From positions 77,277 through 141,276 of the IMG/VR virus record IMGVR_UViG_3300015371_000001: 64,000 nt of DNA. One strand, written 5' to 3'. The position numbers and the translations under genes are program-made. The notes below the pieces were generated by a model. That model did no database searches, was not told the origin of the DNA, and saw nothing but the letters and a program-made list of their open reading frames with translations. This stretch comes from a virus. Position 1 is the first letter of the stretch; the number at the start of each line of letters is the position of its first letter. This document shows positions 16,602-25,249 of the stretch, piece after piece.

Positions 16602-16838
16602 GTGGAGACCGTGTTCTGGAGCGCCGTGTTCGCCGTAGCGGTGTGCGCGCCGAGCGCGTTGCTGTGTTGGGCGATGAGCCGGAGGATCAAGGCGGACTAC
16701 CGCGAGGCACGGGCCAAGGCGAAGGCCGAGCACCAGGCGCGGATGGCCGCGATCCTGGCAGAGTTCGACCGAGAGCTTGAGCGACAAGGACTTCTGAGCG
16801 AGGTCAAGAACACCGAACAAGAGAGGCAGCAACCGTGA
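16602..16838 (+). CDS. TM plus coiled-coil protein
   Basis: N-terminal TM, helical tail. Confidence 0.6.
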   Translation: METVFWSAVFAVAVCAPSALLCWAMSRRIKADYREARAKAKAEHQARMAAILAEFDRELERQGLLSEVKNTEQERQQP

Positions 16839-17377
16839 GCGTAGAGAAGCGAGCAGCGCGCGTCCTGGCCGAGGCCGAGGAGCTATTGGACCAGGGCTGG
16901 ATTCAGGGCACCGAGTGGGACGCCAATGGGAACCACTGCATGAGGGGCGCGATCAACGAGGTGATCGACAACCAGGTCACCCTCCGGGTCCGTCCGGGAC
17001 TGCGGAAGAAGGTGCTTCACGCAGCGGTGGGAGCCACCAACACCGTGGTCACCAAGCAGTCGAGTTATCTCGGCGACGACACCCTGGTCTCCAAGCTGTG
17101 CTACGGGATGGAGTCGTACAACGACACTTCCGGACGCACCAAGGAGCAGTGCCAGGGCGCGTTCAGGGCGGCGCGGCGCGGGTTGCTGGACGGACGGTTC
17201 GTGTTCGACCGGCACGCGCTACGCGCGATCACCGTGCAGGAGCCGAAGAAGGCCAAGGCACCTGCGCTGCCACCGGCTCCTCCGGAGCCCAGCTACAAGG
17301 GTGTGCCCAGCTTCGCGCCGTCGGCCAAGAAGCCGGTGAGCGAGAAGAAGGCACGCCGGGAGAAGGTCCACGCATGA
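16835..17377 (+). CDS. DUF6197-like protein, paralog 1
   Basis: VL..A..LL..GWIQG..G.HCMRGAI..YND..RTKEQ. Confidence 0.75.
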   Translation: MSVEKRAARVLAEAEELLDQGWIQGTEWDANGNHCMRGAINEVIDNQVTLRVRPGLRKKVLHAAVGATNTVVTKQSSYLGDDTLVSKLCYGMESYNDTSGRTKEQCQGAFRAARRGLLDGRFVFDRHALRAITVQEPKKAKAPALPPAPPEPSYKGVPSFAPSAKKPVSEKKARREKVHA

Positions 17378-17829
17378 GCCCCGAGCCGGAGCAGGTCGCC
17401 GAGGTCCTGGAGGACGCCGCCGACCTGATCGAGTCCGGGTGGTGCCAGGGGACCTGGACGCGCAAGGCGGTGACCTGGAACGGGCAGGATGCCGGGGAGG
17501 AGGTCTGCGCGTCGGAGGCGATCTCGCGGATGGTCTGGAACAACACCAGCACCAAAGCCGAGCAGGTCGAGTTGTCGACTGCTGCGCACCGAGCGGTGCT
17601 CGAACACCTGGGCCCTGAGGAGTTGAAGCACCTGACCGAGCGGCTGGAGGTCGACCGGCAGCATGGTGATGGCTTCTTGACACCACACATCGTGCTTTCG
17701 CGGACTCGCGACCCTGTCATCGCCTGGAACGACCGTCCGTCCATCGACGGCGGGCCGAATAAGCAGGAGGTCCTGGACACCTTCCGAGGTGCGGCCAAGG
17801 ACGTACTGAAGCCTGAGGAGGCAGCATGA
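17374..17829 (+). CDS. DUF6197-like protein, paralog 2
   Basis: VLEDAADLIESGWCQG..VCASEAI..AWND..EVLDTFR. Confidence 0.75.
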   Translation: MSPEPEQVAEVLEDAADLIESGWCQGTWTRKAVTWNGQDAGEEVCASEAISRMVWNNTSTKAEQVELSTAAHRAVLEHLGPEELKHLTERLEVDRQHGDGFLTPHIVLSRTRDPVIAWNDRPSIDGGPNKQEVLDTFRGAAKDVLKPEEAA

Positions 17830-18371
17830 GTGAGGCGCGACTGAGCGCAATCGACCAGGTCATCGTGGACGCGATCCGGGGCGGGGCCGAGATCATCGAG
17901 CGGGACGGCTGGACCAAGGGCGACCTGCACGCACCGACCGGTGAGCACTGCGCGTTGGGCGCGCTCGACGCCTGGCTGACCGAGCACACCCGTCACGGGA
18001 CGGCGCTTGAGTACCTGAGGCTTCGTGAGCAGGTGCAGCAGGTGGTGAACCTGCATGTGCAGGACACGACGCGGTACTCCAACGTGGCGAGGTTCAACGA
18101 CGCCACCCGGACCACCTACGCCGGTCAGGTGACTCGCAAGCTGCGGGAGGCGGCTGCCTGGTACGAGCGGACCCGGCTCGCTCAGGTCATGGGTTCGCTG
18201 ACTGAGGTCGAGGCTGCGCTGAAGGCGGAGGCCAAGGCTGAGAAGAAGGCAGCAAAGGCCGAGCGCCGTGAGCAGCGCAAGATCAAGCGCAAGGCGCGGC
18301 GTTGGGGCCGGTCGCCGGTCACCTGGCCAGCCGAGGAGCAGGTCACCGACAAGGCCGAGGAGCGGGTGTGA
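17826..18371 (+). CDS. DUF6197-like protein, paralog 3
   Basis: GWTKG..GEHCALGAL..RFND..QV..LREAA. Confidence 0.75.
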   Translation: MSEARLSAIDQVIVDAIRGGAEIIERDGWTKGDLHAPTGEHCALGALDAWLTEHTRHGTALEYLRLREQVQQVVNLHVQDTTRYSNVARFNDATRTTYAGQVTRKLREAAAWYERTRLAQVMGSLTEVEAALKAEAKAEKKAAKAERREQRKIKRKARRWGRSPVTWPAEEQVTDKAEERV

Positions 18372-18832
18372 GCACGACGATGGCGATTTCGGCGCTGGAC
18401 ATCCTGCCGGTCTATGACTCGGAGACTTCGGAGGTCATCGGCGGGTTCGACCGGACGGTTCAGCGGGACGACTCCGAGCGGACCGCCGAGATCTGTGAGA
18501 ACGCGGCCAAGCTCATCGAGGAGCGAGGTTGGACCCAGGACACCGCCGTCGGCGCGAACGGCGGTGTCTGTCTGGTCGAGGCGCTGACCCGCGCCGCGCT
18601 GGACAAGGTGATCTTCACCAGTGGCGGGGCCGACGAGTCGGTTCGGGCGGCGTTCCAGAGGGCGCTGGACCACATGGAGTGGACGCTGTTCGGCTCCAAG
18701 ACGCTGGACGAGGGCTACAACATGGCGCGCTGGAACGACCGGATAGGGCGTCGGGAGCAAGAGGTCCTGGACGCGCTCCACACCGGAGCCAAGCTCGCAC
18801 TCAACCCGGAGGCAGACCGTGGCGATGCATGA
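18368..18832 (+). CDS. DUF6197-like protein, paralog 4
   Basis: AAKLIEERGWTQ..GVCLVEAL..RWNDRIGR..EVLDAL. Confidence 0.75.
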   Translation: MSTTMAISALDILPVYDSETSEVIGGFDRTVQRDDSERTAEICENAAKLIEERGWTQDTAVGANGGVCLVEALTRAALDKVIFTSGGADESVRAAFQRALDHMEWTLFGSKTLDEGYNMARWNDRIGRREQEVLDALHTGAKLALNPEADRGDA

Positions 18833-19304
18833 TCATTCGGTCCTTTGTCCTCTGTGCAGTCCGACGATTGATCTGACCGAGCAGGAGGAGGCCAACCACA
18901 TCGCGTCCGGGGTGAACCCGTCCACCGGTACTCCGGCTGACCCTGGCATCAACACGCCGGAGCGTCGTCACGAGGACGAGCAGTTGGCTGACATCCTGGA
19001 CCGGGCTGCCGATCTATTGGAGACGCACGGTCGTTGCACCGAGCAGTTGGTCGACAAGGCGACCGGCGAGTTGTGTCTGGTCGGTGCGCTGATGAAGGCG
19101 AGCGACGAGCACGAGGTGGTCGGCAAGCGTCGTCGCCGGGTCTACCGGCACATGCTCGACACCACCTGGCTGGAGATGGATTTGCCTCGACTGTGGTTGT
19201 CGTCGTGGAACGACTCTAAATGGACCACCGACCAACAAATCCTCGACGCCCTGCGTCTGGGAGCCAAGAACGCAAGAATGCCAAAACCGATGGAGGCAGA
19301 ATGA
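18819..19304 (+). CDS. DUF6197-like protein, paralog 5
   Basis: ILDRAADLLETHG..GELCLVGAL..SWND..QILDALR. Confidence 0.75.
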   Translation: MAMHDHSVLCPLCSPTIDLTEQEEANHIASGVNPSTGTPADPGINTPERRHEDEQLADILDRAADLLETHGRCTEQLVDKATGELCLVGALMKASDEHEVVGKRRRRVYRHMLDTTWLEMDLPRLWLSSWNDSKWTTDQQILDALRLGAKNARMPKPMEAE

Positions 19305-21508: not shown

Positions 21509-21913
21509 ATGGGACGCTTTGCCGATACGTTGCGCAAGGAGATGGAGCCTGAAAATCCTCTGCGCAGCGGCGATACCCAGGTGGCGTTGATCCACTTCCT
21601 GGCGCGTCTGGAGGCGTTGGAGGCCGAGGAGCAGCAGGCCATCGAGCAGGCCACCGACAAGGCGCTGGAGCGGATGGGTCACCCACCGTACCGAGGGCCG
21701 TTGATCAGAGACGTACGTGCCGTTCTGAAGCGTCGTAGGGATCGCCGGGGGGAGATGGTCACCGAGCCTGAGATCGAGGCTCCAGCGCCCGTAGACGACG
21801 ATCCTGAGGGTGGCTGGTTCTTCTCCGTGCAGGGGATGATCAGGTTCGAGGACGGAGAGGGGATCTTCGATGAACAGGAAGCCCCCGAATTGGAAAAAGA
21901 TGCCACCGGATGA
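21509..21913 (+). CDS. Hypothetical protein
   Basis: ORF in gene train. Confidence 0.55.
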   Translation: MGRFADTLRKEMEPENPLRSGDTQVALIHFLARLEALEAEEQQAIEQATDKALERMGHPPYRGPLIRDVRAVLKRRRDRRGEMVTEPEIEAPAPVDDDPEGGWFFSVQGMIRFEDGEGIFDEQEAPELEKDATG

Positions 21914-22247
21914 GCAGTCGCAGTACCTAGCCGATCTGTACTACGTCTCGGCTCAGATGAGGAGCGACCAACCTCACCCGTGGGCAGGACCGTTCTCAGC
22001 GACTCGGTTCGTGCAGGTGGAGTCCATCTTCGGGATCGCCGCCGCGTTGTTCGGCTTCTGGATCTGGAGTCAGCCCAGCGGTCAACTCCTTGCTGGCGTC
22101 TCGTGGGTGGTCGCTGTCGTTTGTCTGTGGGAGCCCGCGTGGCTGATCGCGTCGTACTTTGCGGCGATTGGCTACGCCAGGAAACACCCAGAGCGATATG
22201 AGGTTCGGGGGTCGAAGTTCCGACTACGACTGGAGGCGATGAAGTGA
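21870..22247 (+). CDS. Membrane protein
   Basis: Two to three TM segments. Confidence 0.6.
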   Translation: MNRKPPNWKKMPPDEQSQYLADLYYVSAQMRSDQPHPWAGPFSATRFVQVESIFGIAAALFGFWIWSQPSGQLLAGVSWVVAVVCLWEPAWLIASYFAAIGYARKHPERYEVRGSKFRLRLEAMK

Positions 22248-22447
22248 CAGACGAGAACGATCTGCTAGATGCTGACGCTGCGTGGGAGCGTGCCAGTGCT
22301 CTGCTCCGGCAAGCCGACCGGAGCTTGCGGGGCGGAACCCCCGGCATCGCCGACACGCAGGCCAACCTGGCGATGGCCTACACCTTGTACGCCACCGGCA
22401 GGCAGGAAGGCAGCATCATCTTCGAACCTGCTGAAGAAAACAGGTAG
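22244..22447 (+). CDS. Hypothetical protein
   Basis: GTGA-coupled. Confidence 0.55.
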   Translation: MTDENDLLDADAAWERASALLRQADRSLRGGTPGIADTQANLAMAYTLYATGRQEGSIIFEPAEENR

Positions 22448-22496
22448 AACCGAGTACCAGGGTTCGAGAGGGTATCTATTCACAGGAGGCGCACCA

Positions 22497-22757
22497 GTGA
22501 GCGTTGACACCCAGACGGCCCCGGAAGGCAAGGCAACCTTGTCGATTCCGGACCCCACCGGGGACACCCGCATTCTGTGGGACCCCACCAACCGTGACGA
22601 GGTCGACCTGGCCCGAGCCGCTTTCGAGCAGGCGAAGGCAAAGGGAATGGCAGCGTTCGCAGTCAACCCGGCTGACGGCTCTCAGGGCGGTCAGATCCGT
22701 GAGTTCGACCCGGAGGCGAAGGCCATCGTCATGGTGCGGCAGTTGCAGGGAGGCTAG
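22497..22757 (+). CDS. Putative ubiquitin-like (beta-grasp) protein ending in Gly-Gly
   Basis: 86 aa; AGGAGG SD; apparent beta-beta-alpha-beta-beta-beta pattern; ends AIVMVRQLQGG-stop. Confidence 0.6.
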   Translation: MSVDTQTAPEGKATLSIPDPTGDTRILWDPTNRDEVDLARAAFEQAKAKGMAAFAVNPADGSQGGQIREFDPEAKAIVMVRQLQGG

Positions 22758-22762
22758 TCCCC

Positions 22763-23740
22763 TTGCCGGACCGCGATGAGGACCGAGGCCCGGATGTGTC
22801 CCTGAAAGCTGGGACCATCCGGGCTTCGGATTTATCAGACTTTGCAATCAGCCTGAAGCACGTACAACGAGGGATCGAGAACATGGCCATCACCATCCGG
22901 GACTTGGACGGCGCGTTCCGTACGGCGGCGGGGCAGATCACGACCAACACCACGACGGGGACCTACACGGGTCGGATCGTCAACAACACCAACGCGACGG
23001 TCACCTTCAACGATATGTATACCAACACTTGGACCACTGGCTACAACGGCTACGACCGGATCACGTACGACGACTTCGGGTGGGACCAACGGTTGGAGGA
23101 CTATCGACGTTGGTATACGACGCCCCCACGGGATACGCGGACGCCGGAGGAGATTCAGGAGGCTGCGGCGCGACTTCAGCGTGAGCTAGACGAGCGGCAG
23201 TACCGGCGTGAGGAGCAGAGCCGTCGTCGGCTGGAGCGAGCCCAGCGTGAGGAGGAGAACCGGCAGGCGGCGCACAACCGTGGCCTGGAGGTCCTGGAGT
23301 GGATCTTGACGCCCGAGGAGCGCGAGCAGTGGGCCAAGGACAGTCAGGTCGTGGTCAAGGGCTCTGAGGGCAACCTGTACCGGGTGAACACCTCTGGGGT
23401 CCACGGCAATCTCACCGAGGTCGATGAGCACGGCTGCGAGTTGGCCCACATCTGCGTCGCGCCTCAGATGTACGTGGGTCGGAACGACCACGAGGACGAC
23501 TATGGACGAGTAATGCCGTCGTCAGATGGCTGGGTGGGTCAGATCCTCATGATCAAGAACAGCGAGCGGGAGATTCAGGCCAGGGGTAACTACTCGCGTC
23601 GTAATCCGTGCCGTCGAGACCGGAACCGGACCGCGCGGATCAACCGTGAGCCGATGCCTGGAGACCGGATGGAGCTTGCTCACGTCATCCGTGAACAGCG
23701 TGAGCGGATGGAGCACAACTGGAACGTGAACGCCGCGTGA
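22763..23740 (+). CDS. Partner protein A of the GG-terminated protein (coiled coil plus conserved Cys domain)
   Basis: LT.EE..GS.G..YRV..N..E.D.HGCE...C.AP.MY..P..G..GQ.L shared with next gene; start uncertain. Confidence 0.65.
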   Translation: MPDRDEDRGPDVSLKAGTIRASDLSDFAISLKHVQRGIENMAITIRDLDGAFRTAAGQITTNTTTGTYTGRIVNNTNATVTFNDMYTNTWTTGYNGYDRITYDDFGWDQRLEDYRRWYTTPPRDTRTPEEIQEAAARLQRELDERQYRREEQSRRRLERAQREEENRQAAHNRGLEVLEWILTPEEREQWAKDSQVVVKGSEGNLYRVNTSGVHGNLTEVDEHGCELAHICVAPQMYVGRNDHEDDYGRVMPSSDGWVGQILMIKNSEREIQARGNYSRRNPCRRDRNRTARINREPMPGDRMELAHVIREQRERMEHNWNVNAA

Positions 23741-24315
23741 GTGAGGATCTGTGGCGCAAGCTGCTCGTACAGGAGGGCATCGTGCAGGCTCCGATGGAAG
23801 CCGATGTGTTGTGGAAGATGTGGGTCGACCGGTACTTGAAGCCGTGGCAGCCGTCGGCTCGCGAACGTGAACGGCACGCCGCTCAGGCTGAGCGAACCCG
23901 GCAACGACTCCGGCAGGACTTGGCTGAGCAGCGTGGTCACGAGCGCAATGAGCGTGCGGCGTGGGAGGAGTTGGACTCGCATCTCACCAAGGATGAGGTC
24001 GCTCAGCGAAAGAAGGACGGTTACGTCGACTTCATGGGCTCGAACGGTCGGCGGTACCGGGTCTATATGAGTGACGAGTTCGGGATCACCGACAACGTCT
24101 GGGAGATCGACCAGCATGGGTGCGAGATCCGGAACTACTGTGGAGCGCCGGAGATGTACGCCAACGACATGAGGTTCGCGCGTACGAAAGCCATTCCTGA
24201 GCCGTTGGGATACTTGGGACAGGTTTTGACGTTGAGGTTCAATGCCGAGGCATTTTTGGCAGCGGCGTACGCAGGCGAAGTATGGCAATGTGAGAGGCAG
24301 CAAGGCAGTGGCTAA
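23737..24315 (+). CDS. Partner protein B, paralog of 22763-23740
   Basis: GSNGRRYRV..NVWEIDQHGCEIRNYCGAPEMY..GYLGQVL. Confidence 0.7.
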   Translation: MSEDLWRKLLVQEGIVQAPMEADVLWKMWVDRYLKPWQPSARERERHAAQAERTRQRLRQDLAEQRGHERNERAAWEELDSHLTKDEVAQRKKDGYVDFMGSNGRRYRVYMSDEFGITDNVWEIDQHGCEIRNYCGAPEMYANDMRFARTKAIPEPLGYLGQVLTLRFNAEAFLAAAYAGEVWQCERQQGSG

Positions 24316-24447
24316 CAGGTACCGGACCAGGCAGCGTCCGGCAAGACAGCGGGGTCATCTGGCGGACAAGCTCCACCACCCTGTTTCGATCCTCGTGATG
24401 GGCGTGGCGGTGTTCACCATCTTGGTGTGGCTTCCACGCTGCGCGGG

Positions 24448-24954
24448 ATGACGAAGAAGGCTCCGCCGAATCCCGAGACGGTTCGTCTCATCGAGGCGAC
24501 TCGTGAGGCTCACGAGGTTCTGGCTGATCTGAAGGCGGAGCGGAAGGCTATCGAGGACCTGGTTGAGAACGCTTCGGCGAAGCTCGCCGAGGAGCTTCAG
24601 GCGATGCATGACGGTTTCGTCGCGGCGCTGGTCGAGCAGGGCTTGGAGAACTACAGGTCCACGATTGAGCAGGCTCAAGAGGATGGCGTAAGGACGATCC
24701 TCGAAGGGTTTGATGAGATGGTCAGCAAGTTGTTGATCGCGACCAAGAAGGATCAGCGCCGAGGACTGCCGTCGATTCCTGATCTGGTAGAGCAGATGGC
24801 GTCCGGCAACCTGGATTTCGACTCTGAGGCGATGAAGCGCAAGGTCCAGGAGATTGAGGCGGAGATGGCCGCTGAACAGCGGTTGCGTGACCGGGAGGAG
24901 CGACGTGCCCGAGCTAAGGCAGAAGCTAAGTCCCGAAGAAAAGGTCGCCGGTAG
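24448..24954 (+). CDS. Coiled-coil protein
   Basis: Long amphipathic helices. Confidence 0.65.
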   Translation: MTKKAPPNPETVRLIEATREAHEVLADLKAERKAIEDLVENASAKLAEELQAMHDGFVAALVEQGLENYRSTIEQAQEDGVRTILEGFDEMVSKLLIATKKDQRRGLPSIPDLVEQMASGNLDFDSEAMKRKVQEIEAEMAAEQRLRDREERRARAKAEAKSRRKGRR

Positions 24955-25249
24955 GAAGTTCCGGGACGAGCAGCAGGCGTACCTCGACAGGCTGAATGAG
25001 ACAGACCCGCCGACGTACGACGAAGGTGTGGACACGCTCCAGCGATACATCCGCCACGAGTGTGCCAAGCAGGGAGGCCGGAAGGCGTTGTCGATGCAGG
25101 AGGTCTACATCTTCAGCGATGACAAGAAGTTCGGCTTCATATTCAAGGAAGGCAAGTGCCGGTGCGGAGAGACAGCACGAACGGCAACAGGTCGGTTCGT
25201 GATCGCATCGGAGAGACCACCACTGGAAGGAAGGGTGGCACGTAGATGA
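24905..25249 (+). CDS. Hypothetical protein
   Basis: GGAGG SD, GTG start; Cys motifs. Confidence 0.55.
   Translation: MPELRQKLSPEEKVAGRKFRDEQQAYLDRLNETDPPTYDEGVDTLQRYIRHECAKQGGRKALSMQEVYIFSDDKKFGFIFKEGKCRCGETARTATGRFVIASERPPLEGRVARR

Follow-up and report, generated by a model that had tools for sequence, protein, structure and literature searches.

Organisation of the locus

The window analysed here, 64,000 nucleotides (nt) of a soil phage from the IMG/VR virus record IMGVR_UViG_3300015371_000001, carries at positions 22497-24315 a small gene module in which an 86 amino acid protein ending in Gly-Gly, here called the GG protein, is encoded upstream of two partner proteins, A and B, that share a Cys containing C-terminal domain. 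It is clear that the module exists, is widespread and lacks annotation, and that conservation of the GG end and the pairing of GG gene and partner gene go far beyond chance. A ubiquitin-like chemistry of the module is plausible, and it may constitute an undescribed minimal protein-tagging or decoy module.

The GG gene (P0001; 22497-22757, + strand) begins with a GTG codon 7 nt downstream of a Shine-Dalgarno sequence AGGAGG (22484-22489, + strand), and direct reading of the sequence so bears out the GG-ended gene with a strong ribosome binding sequence described in an earlier note on this DNA. The 3' end of the gene reads GGA GGC TAG (22749-22757), with the Gly85-Gly86 codons at 22749-22754 and the stop codon at 22755-22757, and the product terminates RQLQGG (...KAIVMVRQLQGG). 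Partner A (22883-23740, + strand; 285 amino acids) lies in a reading frame that is open from a TTG at 22763, the likely start being the ATG at 22883 because a public gene call (P0010) begins there and homologues start with MAT or MAS. It is made up of an N-terminal region rich in Thr, Asn, Trp and Tyr, an Arg/Glu-rich coiled coil, the Cys domain (about 23258-23632, with the codon of the invariant Cys at 23453-23455) and a tail ending NVNAA. Partner B (23737-24315, + strand; 192 amino acids) has a GTG start that overlaps the TGA stop of A by 4 nt (GTGA), a shorter, helical N-terminus unlike that of A, the same Cys domain (Cys135, codon 24139-24141) and the end QQGSG without an AA. As had been proposed, A and B are paralogues through a common C-terminal domain of about 120 amino acids (34% identity over 125 amino acids, BLASTP E=3e-17); B matches the profile of the partner family with E=7.9e-36, and the Cys domain occurs only these two times in the genome.

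The earlier note had the two partners follow the GG gene at once, but A is probably not coupled to it so directly, since a gap of 125 nt with a strong hairpin separates it from the GG gene. Most relatives are without such a gap. Predicted folding of 22750-22890 gives an RNA hairpin whose roughly 25 bp form three helices stacked on one another (22775-22836, + strand), the minimum free energy being -59.3 kcal/mol and z -3.95, with an equally good fold in 0 of 200 shuffles. This hairpin may be an attenuator, an RNA processing site or a stabiliser, and may govern how much GG protein is made relative to partner. A consensus scan of 21800-25000 called no promoter and no terminator.

The GG protein family

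A first search yielded 6 homologues of the GG protein and a profile search 1183 (E<=1e-3). Among the matches listed, 120 of 120 have an unextended GG as their exact C-terminus, the consensus being [RKP]Q[LM][VQ]GG, and the C-terminal GG stressed in the earlier note is thus borne out; G85 and G86 are invariant in the alignments A2, A6 and A7 and likewise in 19 diverse sequences derived from genome loci. Also conserved are an N-terminal hairpin motif, LHIxDxTGDTRxMWD, and an FDP preceding the last strand. Two members, P0201 (156 amino acids) and P0272 (138 amino acids), have an N-terminal extension of 55-75 amino acids ahead of the conserved domain and keep the GG end. In Virus Rctr197k (KX853510; locus L032, 2300-5043) the GG-family protein, a very distant member, is annotated with 142 amino acids, apparently contains the domain twice in tandem, and has IPG at its end in place of GG; just upstream, this record has a transposase-like gene and an annotated CRISPR repeat region.

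A Pfam scan of 125 members at E<=10 returned scattered noise only and no family, a PHROG scan and PDB sequence profile searches of the GG protein gave no match, and a pattern scan of prokaryote genomes with the GG-protein alignment confirmed no relative. Among isolate phage records the GG protein matched two distant ones, and in the ESM Atlas GG protein and partner alike fall in unnamed clusters only. Identity with Pup was considered and rejected, Pup ending GGQ or GGE and being disordered. The structure model of the GG protein, computed before the deep alignment A7, has a predicted local distance difference test (pLDDT) score of 74 and shows strands at 24-27, 51-56, 63-67 and 76-81 with one helix (33-48), residues 1-19 at the N-terminus being disordered; it reproduces only in part the succession of strands and helix that had been read from the hydrophobic pattern.

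The partner family and its pairing with the GG protein

A profile of the partner C-terminal domain finds 7,643 clusters (E<=1e-3) among 1.84 billion representatives. In the usual layout the N-terminal region is variable, rich in Thr and Trp, and carries WxxW motifs (a median of two in each protein); it is followed by a coiled coil rich in Arg and Glu, the conserved domain and a short tail. Members of 107-135 amino acids that consist of the domain only exist as well, and in 8 of 148 partners an N-terminal Phage_zn_bind_8 finger replaces the usual N-terminus. Invariant in the 148 aligned sequences are N51, C66, P87 and Q95, the Cys sitting in a C-[VA]-[AH]-P (C-x-x-P) motif with the Asn 15 residues upstream. 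Distant partners from Rctr197k and the huge phage LR756511 keep the Cys and have lost the Asn. The motif that the earlier note had singled out is present in A as VHGN..DEHGC....IC, and its second Cys, that of C-x-x-P, is the invariant one, but the Cys of HGC is not; nor is HGN a feature of the family, as the His varies and the Asn is lost in the distant members. A papain-like peptidase was also considered for the Cys domain and rejected, the family having no invariant His. Pfam searches with all 148 partners at E<=10 gave scattered noise apart from Phage_zn_bind_8, PHROGs had no match for A, B or ten diverged partners, the partner has no PDB sequence profile match, and isolate phage records returned nothing by megablast of the region or tblastn of partner sequences.

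The C-termini of the partners have a bias of their own. AA ends 102 of 154 and VA 24 of 154, with any terminal Ala in 130, and among the open reading frames (ORFs) of the same loci, partners counted in, 38 of 438 end AA. The AA end is absent from partner B and from the short partners of the second pairs described below. The pattern may reflect an added layer of function, either an ssrA-like degron or a second tail that could be adenylated. In one subfamily (39 of 154) a P-x-V-P-[IV]-L tail motif precedes the C-terminus.

Linkage was surveyed by scanning all fetched loci with hidden Markov models of both families. These loci represent about 20 contig lineages and comprise IMG/VR contigs of 33-177 kb, Logan and JGI contigs, a GenBank metagenome assembly, Virus Rctr197k and a 595-kb huge phage. 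Wherever a locus extends far enough, the partner gene is found directly downstream of the GG gene, and the conserved linkage supposed for the pair therefore holds in all loci where it could be looked at. In a few cases a small gene separates the two: an 85 amino acid Cys/His-rich ORF resembling HNH endonucleases in L002 (6319-6576), a zinc-ribbon-like CxxC...CxxC ORF in L011 (6075-6554) and a 98 amino acid ORF in L033 (4261-4557), the huge phage. Three lineages have two tandem GG/partner pairs (L009 5980-8271, L021 1226-3372 and L036 1214-3790), the partner of the extra pair being short and consisting of the domain only. In a quick FastTree tree the GG proteins of the second pair in L021 and in L036 cluster, as do their short, AA-less partners, and partner B of the window clusters with these short second-pair partners, so that the one GG protein of the window precedes two partners of different types.

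The predicted fold of the Cys domain

The model of the Cys domain, built from 148 sequences, has a pLDDT of 87 overall, above 95 at residues 1-70 and 91-120 and 76 in the loop 71-80. It comprises helices 2-16 and 19-28, strands 30-34, 40-44, 52-55 and 61-66, a long loop, and helices 88-101 and 103-109. Structural neighbours of the model are proteins of the fold shared by ubiquitin-conjugating (E2) enzymes, RWD domains and UEV domains (RWDD2, the RWD of GCN2, the UEV of Vps23/Tsg101, Ubc9), in agreement with the E2-like nature suggested in the earlier note, and the predicted fold of the partner domain may be called weakly E2/RWD-like. Foldseek of the model against the PDB gave no match. In BFVD it matched proteins of 268 and 245 amino acids, by length apparently the two partner-family proteins of Rctr197k, and, as a distant structural relative, an uncharacterised protein of Agrobacterium phage Atu_ph07 (A0A2L0UZL2). 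Profile alignment (hhalign) against four E2 domains of the Prok-E2_B (Cap2) type taken from genomes was not significant at a probability of 0.7%, and the sole local alignment, equally short of significance, sets the invariant Cys on the catalytic Cys.

A possible modifier system without its own E1

That neither an activating (E1) enzyme nor a JAB peptidase accompanies the module had been noted for the window, and can now be said of the whole phage and of five related records, four of them at 100% completeness. PF00899 (ThiF-type E1) was not found at E<=1 in the 141-kb record of the phage itself or in the five related phage records, control genomes matching as expected; Prok-JAB was likewise not found in these six records, BubE/DUF6527 not having been searched, and JAB (PF01398) was not found in the phage's own genome. 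The earlier note also held that this does not look like a ThiS/MoaD pathway; the GG family is without profile similarity to ThiS or MoaD, and no sulfur-transfer genes lie near the module.

The invariant and unextended GG, the pairing with an invariant-Cys domain, the weak but consistent E2/RWD-like shape and the variable N-termini of the partners together point to a chemistry on the C-terminus of the GG protein at the partner Cys. The reading we tentatively prefer, at somewhat less than an even chance, is that of an E1-less ubiquitin-like (Ubl) and E2-like module that exploits the activating enzymes of the host or traps them. A small modifier-like protein with a free Gly-Gly tail would work with one or more partners built of a variable N-terminus, a charged coiled coil and an E2/RWD-like Cys domain. 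Because the phage encodes no E1, activation of the GG tail would fall to an adenylating enzyme of the host, either an E1 of the MoeB/ThiF type or one belonging to a ubiquitin-like defence system; the activated tail would then be handed to the partner Cys as a thioester, and the modifier either moved to targets chosen by the variable N-terminus of the partner or retained, occupying the host enzyme. For the E2s of Bil systems a direct recognition of targets that needs no E3 has been proposed (PMC11601596), with which the variable N-termini of the partners fit. Here A and B, with their different N-termini, would share a single GG protein. A more ambitious version, which we hold to be doubtful, has a self-contained minimal tagging system of ubiquitin type in many lineages of uncultured phages, with genomes ranging from 40 kb in soil phages to 595 kb in huge phages, where a GG modifier and a mini E2-like enzyme with variable target-recognition arms would, by way of a hijacked host E1 or a new activation chemistry, tag host or phage proteins during infection.

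Several observations weigh against a Ubl/E2-like module. The GG protein is without a known activating enzyme, its model matched no ubiquitin, ThiS or MoaD structure, and the β-grasp fold which the earlier note had given it was not recovered. Alignment of A7 by hhalign with MoaD and ThiS alignments (17 MoaD and 74 ThiS sequences from genome loci) gave probabilities below 1% (<=0.4%). On the partner side, UQ_con, Prok-E2, RWD and UEV were unmatched in Pfam by the 148 members at E<=10, and in the model the invariant Cys ends strand 4, the Cys of canonical E2s being in a loop about 8 residues after the HPN motif. Overall the GG, the linkage, the E2/RWD/UEV neighbours and the missing E1 and JAB are supported in the module as first proposed; the HGN motif and the Cys of HGC are not family features, and the β-grasp was not recovered.

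Alternative explanations

A serious rival, if on balance unlikely, is a non-covalent complex in which the GG tail lies as a free carboxylate in a pocket of the partner, as the tail of MoaD does in MoaE. The partner would be a non-catalytic binder of UEV or RWD type, the pair a regulator or host-takeover factor, and the Cys would have a redox, metal or packing role. Among the top structural neighbours of the partner, non-catalytic RWD and UEV domains turn up just as frequently as true E2s, there is no E1 across the six phage records, the Cys is placed unlike that of a canonical E2, and strict gene pairing is expected just as much of a stable heterodimer. Set against this, one Cys invariant in 148 diverse sequences and kept in very distant members is unusual for a purely structural residue, the unextended GG of all homologues listed is a hallmark of adenylated tails, and the partner has no similarity to MoaE in Pfam. 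Less probable is an anti-defence decoy or sink. Here the GG protein, and possibly the AA/VA tail of the partner, would mimic substrates of the E1 or E2 enzymes which the host encodes in Bil, Bub or type II CBASS (cyclic-oligonucleotide-based anti-phage signalling system) loci, and the E2-like Cys domain would drain activated modifier, blocking the tagging of phage proteins or the priming of the CD-NTase (cGAS/DncV-like nucleotidyltransferase). Host Ubl systems that target phages are established (PMC11601596). The module sits among small early/middle genes without assigned function in a phage that encodes neither ThiF-type E1 nor JAB, and its small-residue ends (GG, and AA or VA in 126 of 154 partners) resemble the tails that E1-type adenylation domains accept. 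However, many anti-defence genes are patchier than this very large family with its strongly conserved core; no similarity to BilA or BubA was seen, none having been tested for, and no report of such an inhibitor was found in the literature.

If the AA and VA ends are given first place, the partner becomes an unstable regulator, its C-terminus an ssrA-like degron for proteases of ClpXP type and the GG protein a protector, adaptor or anti-adaptor. ClpX recognises a C-terminal AA with a free carboxylate, such ends are in excess over the ORFs of the same loci, and their absence from the short second-pair partners and from paralogue B would fit a differential stability. We regard this as improbable, as the invariant Cys and the invariant GG are left unexplained by it and the AA end could serve another recognition equally well. 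A sulfur carrier of ThiS/MoaD type, thiocarboxylated on its GG by host enzymes and feeding a partner that uses the sulfur to modify a nucleic acid or cofactor, seems very unlikely. The GG end is like those of ThiS and MoaD (...FPPVTGG, ...FQVIAGG) and, judged from the control genomes, MoeB or ThiF is universal in hosts, but besides the failed alignment with MoaD and ThiS, PF02597 was unmatched by any of 125 GG-family members at E<=10, the partner has a single conserved Cys and no MoaE, TtuA or PP-loop similarity, and the sulfur-transfer genes that such a carrier would call for are not nearby.

Relation to known systems

The known prokaryotic relatives of ubiquitin systems, Bil, Bub and type II CBASS, each come with an E1 and a peptidase (PMC11601596). 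Bil (BilABCD) and Bub (6E/DUF6527) always encode an E1 together with a JAB or BubE peptidase, in contrast to the six phage records, where ThiF-type E1 and Prok-JAB were not found. They belong to bacterial defence islands, whereas the GG/partner module is carried by phages; Bub forms Ser/Tyr oxyesters (PMC11601596), and the phage partner family has an invariant Cys. At the sequence level the Prok-E2 and UQ_con families of these systems show no similarity to the partner, nor was a β-grasp fold recovered for the GG protein. Type II CBASS with Cap2, an E2-E1 fusion, and E2-only CBASS (CdnG-E2, PDB 8hsb) conjugate the CD-NTase itself and need a fused E1, and the present module differs in having a separate small protein and neither CD-NTase nor effector, the Cap2-type E2 aligning with the partner only at the insignificant probability given above. 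With MoaD-MoaE and ThiS-ThiF it has in common a protein of about 80 amino acids with a free GG tail encoded beside its binding protein, and differs from them by the lack of MoaD/ThiS profile similarity, of MoaE/ThiF similarity in the partner and of a cofactor-pathway context. Tail assembly protein I (TAPI; PMC1779556) is the sole phage-encoded Ubl with a conserved C-terminal Gly of which a description was found. It is encoded in the tail operon, adjoins a JAB plus NlpC/P60 peptidase and has an extra domain after the Gly, whereas the present module is set apart from the tail genes and lacks a peptidase, its small protein stopping exactly at GG. Searches of the published literature brought up no account of a GG protein paired with an E2-like partner in a phage.

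Prokaryotic Ubl conjugation has so far been a weapon of bacteria against phages, in Bil, type II CBASS and probably Bub, with the E1 always included. Were the E1-less module proposed here to be what it seems, phages would either run a tagging of their own on host enzymes or deploy mimics that disarm such defences, and either outcome would bring a new kind of player into phage-host conflict. It would also provide a very small and tractable model for E2-like domains acting without an E3. Because both families are large (1,183 homologues and 7,643 clusters) and without a Pfam or PHROG model, naming them would allow thousands of 'hypothetical' phage genes to be annotated.

Genomic setting

The window is the right-hand part of the 141,276-base virus record, for which completeness is estimated at 96%; its GC content is about 61% and almost every gene is on the + strand. 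PHROG matches in the surroundings include a tail fibre, helicases, DnaB, a family A polymerase, a UvsX-like recombinase and a sigma factor, and the module is placed between the tail-fibre genes and the replication genes. Its neighbours are small genes without assigned function, with DUF6197 paralogues and a gene for a helix-turn-helix protein upstream. The gene at 19888-20448 matches DUF6197 in Pfam (E=5e-15), which assigns at least this member of the upstream paralogue array (16835-19304 in the earlier note) to the DUF6197 family. No RNA run is listed among those that contain this DNA; the same stretch is present in several rhizosphere metagenome runs.

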